Assembly: GCA_963796955.1 (NCBI GenBank)
Contig: CAWCNJ010000004.1
Span: forward strand, 365,624 to 429,623
DNA length: 64,000 nucleotides
Reading direction: 5' to 3'
Source of the DNA: Endomicrobiales bacterium
Lineage (GTDB): Bacteria > Elusimicrobiota > Endomicrobiia > Endomicrobiales > JALOBY01
In this document: positions 41,092-48,176 of the stretch, piece by piece
Position numbering within the stretch: position 1 is the stretch's first letter
How the letters are laid out: each line of letters starts with the position of its first letter
The notes under the pieces: model-generated
Seen by the model: the letters and a program-made list of their open reading frames with translations, nothing else
The model's database searches: none
What the model was told of the DNA's origin: nothing
Translations under genes and position numbers: made by a program

Positions 41092-42438
41092 TTAGCTCAG
41101 GATTTCTAGGATGCTCTTTTTGACGATATTGACCATGCGGGATATTTCCGGATTGGTAATGGTTATTGGTGGCATAAGCACAAGGGTATTGCCGAGGGGG
41201 CGGATGATAAGGCCTTTGGGGCGGCATGCTGCGCAGATACGGGCACCGATCCTTTCTTTAGCGGGGAAATCTTTCAGCGTAATGCGGTCCTTTGCAAGTT
41301 CAATTCCAGCCATTAAACCAACTTGCCTTACATCAACGACATTCGGCAAATCCTTAAGTGAAGTAAGTTGCTTTCCCAGGTGTTCTACCTTGGCCGGCAG
41401 GCTTTCAATAATTCTGTCTTTCTTAAGGATGTTGATGGTTGCAATGGCAGCGGCGCAGGCAAGCGGATTTGCTGTGTATGTGTGGCCATGAAAAAAAGTT
41501 TTAAATTCCTCGTAACATCCTAAAAAACCTTGGTATATCTTTTCATCGGTCAGGGTAACGGCAAGAGGCAGGTAGCCTCCCGTGATGCCTTTTGAAAGGC
41601 ACATGAAATCGGGCTTAACGCCTTCCTGCTGGCAGGCAAACAATGTTCCTGTCCTACCAAAACCCGTTGCCACTTCATCGGCTATTAGCAATATTCCATA
41701 TTTTCTGCAAAGTGCGGCGAATGCCTTAAGATATCCCGTAGGCATTTTTATCATACCGCCTGCCGCTTGCATAAGCGGCTCAATAATAGCTGCTGCTATA
41801 TTTCTTCCGTTAGTTTGTAATATCCTTTCTACGTCCTGAAGGCACTGATGCTTGCAATTCCCCTGGTGTTTGCAGCGCAGGCAGTAAGGCGACTGCGCAA
41901 AGTGTGTTTTAAAGAACAGCGGCCCGAATTTGGCGTGGTATATATCGATGCCGCCGACGGCTGAGGCACCGATCGTGTCGCCATGGTAGGCGTTGCGCAG
42001 GGCAAGAAAAGTTGTTTTACCTTTGTGGCCTGTTTGCAGCCAATACTGATACGCCATTTTAAGAGCTATCTCAACGGCGGTAGAGCCGTTGTCGGAATAA
42101 TAGACTCGGGAAAAACCTTTTGGCGCGATAGCAATGAGCATTTGTGAAAGTACGGCGGCGGGTTCGTGCGTAAGACCAAGGAACGTGGTGTGCGCAACCT
42201 TGTCCAACTGTGTTTTTATTGCCTTGGTTATCGCAGGGTGGCGGTGGCCAAGCAGATTGCACCAGAGAGAGGAAACTCCGTCTATATATCTTTTGCCGTC
42301 AGTGTCGTAAAGATAAATACCTTTAGCACGGCTTATGGCCAGAACAGGGGAGGGCGCGTCTTTCGCCCAATCGGCCATCTGGGTGAACGGGTGCCAATTA
42401 TATTTTTTGTCGAGCGCTACGATCTCTTTTGAATTCAC
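41092..42438 (-). CDS. bioA: DAPA aminotransferase
   Basis: WHPFTQM, SSLWC, YHGDT, DEVATGFGRTG, SKGITGGYLP, HGHTYTAN. Confidence 0.96.
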   Translation of the reverse strand: MNSKEIVALDKKYNWHPFTQMADWAKDAPSPVLAISRAKGIYLYDTDGKRYIDGVSSLWCNLLGHRHPAITKAIKTQLDKVAHTTFLGLTHEPAAVLSQMLIAIAPKGFSRVYYSDNGSTAVEIALKMAYQYWLQTGHKGKTTFLALRNAYHGDTIGASAVGGIDIYHAKFGPLFFKTHFAQSPYCLRCKHQGNCKHQCLQDVERILQTNGRNIAAAIIEPLMQAAGGMIKMPTGYLKAFAALCRKYGILLIADEVATGFGRTGTLFACQQEGVKPDFMCLSKGITGGYLPLAVTLTDEKIYQGFLGCYEEFKTFFHGHTYTANPLACAAAIATINILKKDRIIESLPAKVEHLGKQLTSLKDLPNVVDVRQVGLMAGIELAKDRITLKDFPAKERIGARICAACRPKGLIIRPLGNTLVLMPPITITNPEISRMVNIVKKSILEILS

Positions 42439-42448
42439 AGGGGATGTG

Positions 42449-43087
42449 TTATGAGCCTATCAGCCAGGAGTTTTGTTTCAGGTTGATCTTTGCCTTGGCG
42501 GGAACCTCGAGCACCGGCAATCCGGTGAGCTCTCTCAGTATCTCCGGGTTTGTTTTTTCAGCCAGCGTGGAAGTTTTCCTGCCGCTGAGTATAATGCCGG
42601 CGATCTTTACTTTTTCGCGGCGCAGTTTTTCGACGGTTAAAAGCGTGTGGTTTATAGTGCCGATGTTGGGTTTGCCGACAACAACCACCGGCAGGTAAAG
42701 TTTCTTTATAAGGTGCAGCATGGAGGTATTCTCGGTGACCGGCACCATAATGCCGCCCGCCCCTTCAACGATAAGGAACTTATATTTTTTCTTCAGCAGC
42801 GCGAAACCTTTCCATATTTTACCAAGGTCCAGTTTCTGACCGGCGATGCGCGCGGCCACCATAGGCGCCAGCGGGTACTTAAGGAATACCGGGTTTACTA
42901 CTTCAATAGAATCGTCTACTCCCGCGGCTTTTATCAACGACTTCGCGTCCGATCTATCACCGGACGATATCGGCTTCATTACCCCCGGCTGTATGCCGTA
43001 TTCTTTTAACGCAGCCGCGATAGCCGCCGCGATATACGTTTTGCCGACCCCGGTATCCGTCCCCGTAACAAAAATCCCTTTGAACAT
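42449..43087 (-). CDS. bioD: Dethiobiotin synthase
   Basis: [24 protein letters not shown]. Confidence 0.96.
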
Positions 43088-43148
43088 TGAGCACCCCTTG
43101 TTGTTGTAATTGCCTTACCGCAAAATCCCGCTAAGCGAGATTGATACC

Positions 43149-46454: not shown

Positions 46455-47186
46455 CTACAACAGCCTTGAATCCCAATTAAAAGTTTGACCCGAAATTGTT
46501 TTTGTTGACGCCAGCATTACTACGAACTGTGCCAGTTCGTGTATATCTGTTGTCGTTTTGAGTACGCTGTCTTCCCTGCTTTGTTTTATATAATTTTCGC
46601 TGGCATGAGCGCCCATGCCGGACAGGTGAAAGCCGGGCATTACGGAGTTGACGCTAATTCCGTGTTCACCGAGCTCAACAGCTGCTTGCCTGCTTAGTTC
46701 AATAAGCGCGCCTTTCGCGGCGGCATAATTGGCCGAGCCCGCCATGCCTTTGATGCCGCCTATGGAAGCAATGTTTATTATGTTGCCGGAGTTTTGAGAG
46801 ATCATAGCCGGGGCGCAGGCGCGGATCATGTTCCAGGGGCCCTTCAGGTCTGTCTCTACTACCAGGTCCCAATGCGCCTCGTCCATCCTTGAGAGGGAAG
46901 AATTATGGCATACGCCGGCGTTGTTGATAAGGGCGTCGATACGTCCGTACTCATCTAAAACAGATTCTATCATTTTATGTACCGTATTTGAATTCGAAAC
47001 ATCCGCCTGAAACGGTTTCGCTGTGCCGCCGAGCGTCTTGATCTTCCGGCAGAGAGCTTCCGCCTGTTCCGCCGAGGTGTGATAGTTTACCGTTACCGCC
47101 CATCCTGTCCGGGCAAATGTTTCAGCCAAAGAGCTGCCGATACCCCGGGCTGCGCCGGTAATAATGACCGTTTTCGCATTATTCAT
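46455..47186 (-). CDS. FabG-like short-chain dehydrogenase/reductase
   Basis: TGAARGIG, NNAG, S...YAAAK; overlaps the bioB stop. Confidence 0.9.
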   Translation of the reverse strand: MNNAKTVIITGAARGIGSSLAETFARTGWAVTVNYHTSAEQAEALCRKIKTLGGTAKPFQADVSNSNTVHKMIESVLDEYGRIDALINNAGVCHNSSLSRMDEAHWDLVVETDLKGPWNMIRACAPAMISQNSGNIINIASIGGIKGMAGSANYAAAKGALIELSRQAAVELGEHGISVNSVMPGFHLSGMGAHASENYIKQSREDSVLKTTTDIHELAQFVVMLASTKTISGQTFNWDSRLL

Positions 47187-48141
47187 TTATTGTTAAACCA
47201 AGATCGGTTATCATTTGAATATCGGTTTTGGGTGAGCGTCCGGGTGTGGTAAGATAGCCGCCGGTCATGGTGCCGTTCGCGCCGGCGTAAAAGATCCAGG
47301 AAAGGCAATCCCGCAGGTTCGTTTCCCTGCCGCCGCAAACGGCGATGTCCTTGTCCGGCATGATGAAACGGAAAATGGCGACAGTGCGCAGGATATCGGC
47401 GACAGGTAAGGGGCTGGTGTTCGCCAGAGGAGTGCCTTCGATGGGGTTGAGTATGTTAATGGGAATAGAATCAACATCAAGCTCCCTGAGCGTTAAAGCG
47501 AATTCCACCCGCTGCTGTGCGTTTTCTCCCATACCGATTATGCCGCCGCTGCAGATTTCCAGGCCTGCTTCTTTCGCCAGGCGGATCGTGCGCAGTTTAT
47601 CGTCGATCGTGTGGGAGGTGCAAATGGAGGGGAAATAGCTGGGCGCTGTTTCCAGGTTGTGGTGAAAACGGTACATGCCGTGTGATTTGAGTTTTTCAAG
47701 GGATCCTTTATCCATAACGCCGAGCGAGCCCGAGATACCTATCTTAAGATGCTGTATCTTGTCGAGAGCCTTGCAGACGACCTCCGTTTCATCATCGGTC
47801 AACGAGCGGCCGCTGGTAACGATGCCAAAACATTTCGCGCCGGCATTGGCCGCCTGCGTGCAGGCTTTGACCAGTTGTTCTTCGTCGACAAGCGGGTAGG
47901 TGGCGACAGAGGTCTTATTATGGGAGGATTGGGCGCAATAACGGCAGTTTTCAGAACAACTGCCGGATTTGGCATTGATGATGCTGCACAGGTTGATGGC
48001 ATTGCCTTTGAAGTGTTTACGCAGGCGATTGGCCTGATATAACAGCTCGTCATAGTCGGCGCTGAGGAGCGCTGTTGCTTCGGTCTCACTGATGCGGTGG
48101 CCGTTAATGATCCTGTCTGCTAAAGCTGTTGATCCTGTCAT
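47179..48141 (-). CDS. bioB: Biotin synthase
   Basis: CSENCRYCAQS radical-SAM motif, HHNLET, CSGGIIGMGE, YLTT.G. Confidence 0.96.
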   Translation of the reverse strand: MTGSTALADRIINGHRISETEATALLSADYDELLYQANRLRKHFKGNAINLCSIINAKSGSCSENCRYCAQSSHNKTSVATYPLVDEEQLVKACTQAANAGAKCFGIVTSGRSLTDDETEVVCKALDKIQHLKIGISGSLGVMDKGSLEKLKSHGMYRFHHNLETAPSYFPSICTSHTIDDKLRTIRLAKEAGLEICSGGIIGMGENAQQRVEFALTLRELDVDSIPINILNPIEGTPLANTSPLPVADILRTVAIFRFIMPDKDIAVCGGRETNLRDCLSWIFYAGANGTMTGGYLTTPGRSPKTDIQMITDLGLTINE

Positions 48142-48144
48142 GTG

Positions 48145-48176
48145 TTGTTAACCTCTAAAAATGTTGTGGTTGACAA
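48145..48176. promoter_or_regulatory. BirA operator of the bio operon
   Basis: TTGTTAAC-N16-GTTGACAA directly upstream of the bioB ATG, matching the known BirA palindrome wwTGTtAAC-N14-16-GTTaACAww; overlaps the bioB SD. Confidence 0.85.

Follow-up and report, generated by a model that had tools for sequence, protein, structure and literature searches.

We analysed a 64,000-nucleotide (nt) stretch of DNA (the window; positions are counted from its first letter) from the Endomicrobiales bacterium GCA_963796955.1 (contig CAWCNJ010000004.1, positions 365,624-429,623 of the forward strand), whose genome has a size of 2.1 Mb, is 81% complete, and has its nearest named homologues in Endomicrobiales and Elusimicrobiota. 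The window contains a biotin synthesis operon preceded by an operator for the biotin repressor BirA, and in this operon genes for a FabG-like short-chain dehydrogenase/reductase (SDR) and a FabF-fold β-ketoacyl synthase (KAS) lie between bioB and bioF. Taking the evidence as a whole, the best explanation, and in our judgement a likely one, is that the SDR and the KAS form a BirA-regulated module that yields the pimeloyl thioester of biotin without methyl masking. The source of biotin's pimelate arm is still open for many bacteria. In the Endomicrobiaceae, pimelate synthesis was described as unclear and unlike the established pathways in a 2024 genome survey (PMC11257099), and in five Endomicrobium genomes only the pimeloyl-CoA step was reported missing (PMC8809381); the KAS-SDR pair is a direct candidate for this missing step. 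The genes run on the minus strand from 48176 down to 41092, in the order and orientation that a first-pass annotation of the window had given:

48145..48176, minus strand: BirA operator, a palindrome with a 14-nt spacer found by pattern scan, overlapping the ribosome-binding region of bioB
47179..48141, minus strand: bioB, biotin synthase (TIGR00433, 397.8 bits; cut-off 225)
46455..47186, minus strand: FabG-like SDR of 243 amino acids (aa), a putative 3-oxo-dicarboxyl thioester reductase (below all FabG cut-offs)
45291..46421, minus strand: FabF-fold KAS, 376 aa from the ATG at 46421 (below the FabF cut-off)
44171..45282, minus strand: bioF (TIGR00858, 436.3 bits; cut-off 426.45)
43149..44168, minus strand: cation/Ca exchanger of the CaCA family (PF01699)
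42449..43087, minus strand: bioD, dethiobiotin synthase (TIGR00347, 178 bits; cut-off 83.3)
41092..42438, minus strand: bioA, diaminopelargonic acid aminotransferase (TIGR00508, 559.3 bits; cut-off 405)

BioB, BioF, BioD and BioA all exceed their NCBIfam cut-offs, and the reading frames of bioB and the SDR, which had been annotated as overlapping, do so by 8 nt. The BirA box placed ahead of the operon in the first-pass annotation is also borne out. In particular, it matches the consensus printed in PMC545781 and ends 3 nt upstream of the bioB ATG, and the BirA of this genome, a protein of 331 aa, has an N-terminal extension that reads as a helix-turn-helix domain. A strict form of the operator pattern has two matches in the genome as compared with zero or one in each of 20 shuffles; in two sets of related loci, it is present at 5 of 23 and at 9 of 35. 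(Note that the second strict match in the genome, at C8:508367, lies between convergent genes and was taken as chance.) Because none of 55 orthologous KAS loci carries a CaCA gene, the transporter between bioF and bioD is a passenger gene outside the conserved module.

On the strength of operon position, co-occurrence, the exclusion of bioC, intact catalytic residues and family-specific basic residues, we consider it likely that the SDR-KAS pair would supply the pimeloyl moiety by elongating an unmasked dicarboxyl primer. The KAS scores 298.9 bits against the FabF family TIGR03150, below the cut-off of 493.75, and its AlphaFold2 model (pLDDT 96.5) has TM-scores of 0.93-0.95 to FabF structures. 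Its catalytic Cys-His-His residues, reported intact in the first-pass annotation, are indeed present as C136-H268-H305, together with K300, and its predicted shortness (~376 aa) was likewise confirmed. When 52 KAS orthologues were aligned on E. coli FabF numbering, C163, H303, K335 and H340 of FabF proved invariant and F400 was present in 51 of the 52. What distinguishes the family lies in the acyl pocket. The KAS of the window has a SASKP motif at residues 90-94, where FabF has G(S/T)GIGG; in this motif, S92-K93 align with FabF G107-I108, and the replacements of G107 by Ser and of I108 by Lys are found in every one of the 52 orthologues; Y171 aligns with FabF G198, which is replaced by Tyr in 47 of 52. 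In FabF, the I108-F202 gate is level with C7-C8 of the acyl chain in the pocket, and the I108F variant mainly elongates C6 to C8 (PMC9006962). The lysine that had been placed near the acyl pocket from the SASKP motif, K93, thus aligns with a gate residue of FabF.

A quick IQ-TREE search with 84 rows, in which branches are long, put all 39 assigned members of the KAS family on one side of a branch with a value of 99 in the SH-like approximate likelihood ratio test, the other side holding 34 FabFs and 11 other ketosynthases (KSs); the KAS therefore falls in a clade of its own. A resemblance to the short second KAS of cyanobacteria, which the first-pass annotation had suggested, was not supported. 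The window KAS matches PRK05952 (NF004618; model 384 aa), which we take to be the cyanobacterial short KAS, over its full length and is of similar length, but its score of 258 bits is far below the cut-off (455) and on a level with that of E. coli FabF itself (258.6 bits). In this connection, 14 control genomes gave no match at E 1e-90.

The SDR, which scores 203 bits against FabG TIGR01830 (cut-off 297.75), retains the Ser-Tyr-Lys triad that had been noted as intact (S141-Y154-K158), and this triad is invariant across 56 bio-linked SDRs that we surveyed alongside 16 housekeeping FabGs. All 56 SDRs have H187, S240 and R241 (FabG I184 and G239-G240), at which positions the 16 housekeeping FabGs have Ile, Gly and Gly without exception. 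Moreover, FabG M143 is replaced by Lys or Arg in 50 of the 56, and N145 and Q148, which are invariant in FabG, are replaced. Judged from the sequences, both enzymes appear to have acquired basic residues in or close to positions that face the substrate; the KAS lysine would occupy a known pocket position and the basic residues of the SDR are predicted to lie near the substrate.

These residues bear on the idea that the pair is degradative, in which case a thiolase activity of the KAS and a dehydrogenase activity of the SDR would together shorten a longer dicarboxylate to pimeloyl. Such an activity would also account for the carboxylate-binding residues and for the absence of bioC, and the ketosynthase fold is shared with thiolases. 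The decarboxylation machinery is nevertheless kept (H303, K335 and H340 in 52 of 52 orthologues, F400 in 51), the SDR consensus TGxSRGIG includes an Arg that is typical of NADP(H) reductases, and the loci share no conserved gene for a ligase or for uptake. We therefore regard a degradative role as highly improbable.

The pair is linked to biotin genes across the phylum, as the first-pass annotation anticipated. The comparative set comprised 251 Elusimicrobiota genomes, searched four ways (for the KAS, the SDR, BioC and BioW); KAS calls relied on match span and were confirmed from the motif and the gene context, with 50 weaker matches outside the listing, so divergent copies may be missed. Among the matches listed, the KAS is present in 56 genomes, and the SDR is present in 56; 53 genomes have both and 59 have at least one. 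BioC was found in 14 of the 251 genomes and in none of the 59 that carry the KAS or the SDR, and BioW in none of the 251. In addition, four bioC genomes with a second KS match were checked, and none has a KAS of this clade. BioF exceeds its cut-off in 47 genomes, of which 38 carry the pair and 8 carry bioC; the remaining one (G095) has neither, its BioF match lying outside any bio cluster. The operons of bioC genomes read bioB-bioF-(usually an alpha/beta hydrolase or BioG)-bioC-bioD-bioA, without KAS or SDR. The switch between the pair and bioC is seen inside a single family (f10), so the distribution does not reflect one deep split.

At 55 KAS loci in relatives, a bio gene lies within 8 kb in 51 cases, the SDR within 3 kb in 49 and bioF within 8 kb in 48; three of the four loci that have no bio neighbour lie less than 1.5 kb from where their contig ends. 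Gap-free bioB-SDR-KAS-bioF-bioD-bioA operons behind a BirA box occur in several distant families, and these compact operons leave no room for a FabZ-like gene. No acyl carrier protein (ACP) gene was matched at the 55 loci, although a very divergent ACP could escape such a search. The extra genes of some operons are lineage-specific and encode a TPR membrane protein, a DUF5672 protein, YjbQ, a GDSL lipase and AAA proteins. Specifically, KAS and bioF are separated in six genomes (L044, L048, L049, L050, L053, L103) by the gene for a TPR protein of 560-600 aa, five of these six proteins having a PMT_2 glycosyltransferase-like domain, and similar genes flank the operon of the window (36928-41066). 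The DUF5672 protein adjoins the KAS in several f10 genomes (L056, L033, L058, L093), and open reading frames of similar size occur in L112, L114 and L425. The KAS is split in two at L101 (G020:C1, 7814-8940), in a reduced and near-closed genome, and the SDR is split at L063 (G031); these splits possibly represent pathway decay in endosymbionts.

The rest of the genome supplies an ordinary fatty-acid synthesis (FAS) system. The first-pass annotation had allowed that the pair might be the only fabF and fabG present, or that another pimelate route might be encoded elsewhere. A separate fabF and fabG do exist, in a complete housekeeping operon, plsX-fabH-fabD-fabG-acp-fabF-rnc, on another contig (C8), so the SDR-KAS pair is not the housekeeping FAS. 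The genome also carries accB-accC, one ACP (that of the fab operon), one FabZ (encoded elsewhere) and a FabK-like protein. BioC has no match over its cut-off in this 81%-complete genome (best 52 bits against 185), and BioH, BioW, BioG and a P450 were not found either, in searches whose controls were positive and which did not target BioK, BioJ, BioV or BioE by name. We rejected a FabH paralogue encoded on contig C5 as a candidate BioZ, since its neighbours are an SDR gene and an acetyltransferase-like gene and include no bio genes. A second, weaker FabH paralogue is on contig C9.

Two further observations concern these housekeeping functions. The accB-accC genes lie in the window itself at 11141-12961, and a second biotin-carboxyl-carrier gene is on contig C3 (G000:C3, ~109400-109840). 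In 12 of 12 housekeeping loci checked across the phylum, the gene after fabF-rnc resembles those of acyl-CoA dehydrogenases, and etfB-etfA come next where the locus extends far enough (G000, G046); loci with this gene are L010 (9590-12883, G000:C8), L037-L043, L107 and L260-L264. The encoded protein could be an Etf-coupled enoyl reductase of fatty-acid synthesis, and as such a candidate for the step that the module lacks.

In the mechanism that we propose, the KAS would use malonyl as extender in condensations with a primer whose carboxylate is free, glutaryl being almost surely the last acceptor and malonyl probably that of the first round; we lean slightly towards two rounds of elongation starting from malonyl. 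Lys93 at the pocket gate would grip the carboxylate, and Lys93, Tyr171 and the loss of a distal pocket segment would together cap chain length, such that glutaryl (about the size of hexanoyl) would fit the pocket and pimeloyl (about the size of octanoyl) could not re-enter. Reduction of the charged 3-oxo intermediates would be the task of the SDR, whose His187, Arg241 and Lys146 are predicted to lie close to the substrate. Housekeeping enzymes would be borrowed for the dehydration and enoyl reduction steps, the carrier would be either the housekeeping ACP or coenzyme A (CoA), and BioF, BioA, BioD and BioB would complete biotin. The first-pass annotation had inferred that an unmasked primer is extended to pimeloyl-ACP; the genomic tests support the unmasked primer, and pimeloyl-ACP is only a putative product, as CoA could be the carrier instead.

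A variant with a single round deserves consideration here. The KAS might extend glutaryl drawn from metabolism from C5 to C7 and the SDR might then reduce 3-oxopimeloyl, which would make the KAS a convergent, FabF-fold counterpart of BioZ. Since the gate lies at C7-C8, Lys93 should reach the carboxylate of glutaryl more easily than that of malonyl, and BioZ does operate in this way (PMC7645780, PMC8024396). The operons, however, contain no gene for activating glutarate and no other conserved extra gene, the compact ones consisting of bioB-SDR-KAS-bioF-bioD-bioA only, and the Desulfovibrio cluster discussed below was proposed to begin at malonyl (PMC10102598). We consider the single round, itself a sub-variant of unmasked elongation, possible and the less probable of the two choices of primer.

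Which carrier the pair uses is bound up with changes on the surface of the KAS. FabF residues 61-69, which we take to be the short basic helix that contacts ACP, are deleted in 50 of 52 KAS orthologues; residues 124-131, including R127 and K128, are deleted in 50-52 of 52 (about 124-134 in the KAS of the window); R206 is replaced by Gly in 50 of 52, and H268 and T270 are lost. The ACP contacts reported for FabF are R206, H268, T270 and a short basic helix (PMC9006962). With these contacts lost and no dedicated ACP at hand, the pair might act on CoA thioesters, with either primer, and pass pimeloyl-CoA to BioF, an arrangement made more attractive by the report that B. subtilis BioF accepts only pimeloyl-CoA and by the absence of an ACP-like gene from the 55 loci. 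Yet FabB uses ACP despite having Gly at 206 and changed residues at 268 and 270, the KAS orthologues have gained K183 (37 of 52) and retained R57 (46 of 52), the bio-linked SDRs retain Lys or Arg at FabG position 129 (48 of 56), and the operon is without a CoA-type hydratase. We therefore hold CoA chemistry to be rather unlikely. The same doubt applies to its most explicit form, a two-gene route from malonyl units on CoA that combines a lysine-gated KAS of reduced ACP-docking surface with an Arg/His SDR and stops at C7 by pocket size. If true, that route would be mechanistically distinct from BioC-BioH, from BioZ and from the ACP-dependent Desulfovibrio cluster, and it would constitute a portable, compact module for dicarboxylic acids.

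Several points weigh against unmasked elongation by the pair. Much of the FabF docking surface for ACP is missing from the KAS, as just described, and the geometry assigned to its pocket rests on alignment, not docking. The module is without a dedicated dehydratase, enoyl reductase or ACP, so housekeeping enzymes would have to accept charged substrates; hydrophobic FAS pockets were long thought to bar the elongation of free-carboxyl primers, and methylation is what solves the charged-substrate problem for FAS enzymes in the established route (PMC7645780). Related genomes are not independent, and for that reason we attach no P value to the counts given above. One genome that is 100% complete in 120 contigs (G042) has a bioB-SDR-bioF-bioD-bioA operon (L232, G042:C113, 5732-10937), and no KAS of the clade is among its four KS matches; it offers a natural test of whether a housekeeping FabF can substitute for the clade KAS. 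(In G013 the SDR is at a contig end, and in the 84% complete G177 bioB-SDR and bioF are on different contigs and no KAS was seen.) Finally, in two complete Planctomycetota genomes (G350 and G325) the KAS is isolated, with no bio genes nearby; an SDR-profile search of these two returned only housekeeping fabG, and the same search missed the known SDR of G264.

The G042 exception and the isolated KAS genes of G350 and G325 would be compatible with a different product (octanoyl for lipoate, or a lipid or amino-ketone whose synthesis involves a BioF-like enzyme) or with a spare FAS copy, pimelate then coming from an unseen route. The BioF family does include serine palmitoyltransferases. The BioF of the window, however, is over its own cut-off and below all three serine palmitoyltransferase cut-offs, the pair lies behind a BirA box and between bioB and bioF, bioC with an esterase replaces the pair in other lineages, and the acyl pocket of the KAS holds a charged residue. 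Another product thus appears improbable, and the provision of pimeloyl by unmasked elongation remains the reading that we prefer.

Outside the Elusimicrobiota, the KAS recurs in part with its biotin context. Among the best matches in 250 Planctomycetota genomes, it overlaps bioF in G301 and G447 and follows a PGFH/DSR SDR in G264, and none of seven Planctomycetota KAS carriers tested has a BioC over the cut-off. Independently of the KAS, a BioB-like gene directly follows housekeeping fabG-acp-fabF in several Planctomycetota (L206, L208, L299). The KAS motif is also present in proteins named from Omnitrophota and TA06. A metagenome scan gave 80 loci, mostly ordinary FabF, and two of the 79 examined are orthologues, both adjoining an SDR (L115, L117). 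A single-KAS scan of named genomes gave six loci and no orthologue, matches in a representative-protein search were dominated by modular polyketide synthases, and the ESM Atlas returned generic KAS clusters only. The PGFH motif is absent from the first 19 of 80 viral loci matched by the SDR profile, and plasmid searches with the KAS and BioB gave no Desulfovibrio or cyanobacterial record among the best 40 of 547 and the best 50 of 283 matches, respectively. Another phylum has no KAS or SDR within 1.5 kb of its 30 best bioF loci, and the 30 best matches in a further phylum are ordinary FabF. As a separate observation, bioB-bioF-bioA operons from outside the Elusimicrobiota, in a phylum reached via G253 (L383, L384, L389, L391, L392, L396, L397), have no bioC and no KAS-SDR pair in the 1.5 kb around bioF.

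One irregularity of the operon concerns bioF, whose start the first-pass annotation had put 8 nt after the KAS stop. A GTG does lie there (45282), but its frame closes after 14 codons (TAG, 45240-45238), and the remainder of bioF is in a different frame, open from a TTG at 45235 for 354 aa. The 14 codons resemble the N-termini of bioF orthologues, which argues that bioF is frameshifted near 45244-45247. Because 2 of 29 other genes checked are likewise split between frames, the frameshift is likely to be an assembly indel. (Genes split in this way include a glutamate synthase at ~53100-55500 and the acyl-CoA dehydrogenase on C8.)

Should the pair act as proposed, a two-gene module with named residues (K93 and Y171 of the KAS, H187 and R241 of the SDR) would be easier to test than the Desulfovibrio cluster, and could provide a module free of S-adenosylmethionine for the engineering of biotin or dicarboxylic acids. 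Searches of the open-access literature found no description of a KAS-SDR pair in Elusimicrobiota.

Compared with housekeeping FabF and FabG, the enzymes share fold (TM-scores as given above for the KAS) and catalytic residues, and they differ in ways that set them apart as families: the KAS is below the FabF cut-off, falls in a separate clade and has I108K, G107S, G198Y, R206G and three deletions, and the SDR has I184H, Ser-Arg in place of G239-G240, and has lost N145 and Q148. The methyl-ester route of BioC with BioH or BioG leads to the same end product and occupies the same place in the operon, and is the one found in the 14 other genomes of the phylum, none of which has the pair. Like the BioZ route of alphaproteobacteria, the proposed route replaces BioC-BioH by a dedicated ketosynthase of the bio operon that accepts a free omega-carboxylate (PMC7645780, PMC8024396), which BioZ handles through Ser and Arg residues (PMC8024396). 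BioZ is nevertheless a FabH-type enzyme with Cys-His-Asn and no dedicated reductase, whereas the Elusimicrobiota KAS is FabF-type, with Cys-His-His and its own SDR.

The closest parallel is in Desulfovibrio. A KAS and a reductase are among the five FAS-like genes that Rodionov described in 2004 in a BirA-regulated Desulfovibrio bio operon, with the proposal of a new pimeloyl route (PMC545781). Genes of this cluster were found by mutant fitness to be required in the absence of biotin by Trotter in 2023, who suggested that chains are elongated on a special ACP without methyl esters and that biochemical work was needed (PMC10102598). The extended cluster comprises DVU2558-DVU2565 plus DVU1220 (PMC545781, PMC10102598), DVU2563 and DVU2561 being its KAS and its reductase, and clusters of this type are reported in Desulfobacterota and Chrysiogenetes (PMC10102598). 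The first-pass annotation, which knew of no characterised FabF-type/FabG-type pair and presented the operon as a candidate new pathway, was therefore right only in part: a FabF/FabG-like route to pimelate was predicted in 2004 and gained genetic support in 2023, and in searches of the open-access literature we found no biochemistry for the Desulfovibrio route or for any FabF-type unmasked route. Both systems have a FabF-like KAS and a FabG-like reductase in a BirA-regulated bio operon, neither has bioC or bioH, and elongation without methyl esters is proposed for each. Unlike the Desulfovibrio cluster, the Elusimicrobiota module lacks a dedicated ACP, a FabZ-like pair and a linked nitroreductase, and its proteins are much shorter (376 aa as against ~482 for the KAS, and 243 as against ~342 for the SDR, the Desulfovibrio lengths coming from gene coordinates). 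The concept of unmasked elongation is thus not new, and the Elusimicrobiota pair would represent a minimal version of a route that has been predicted and is genetically supported.

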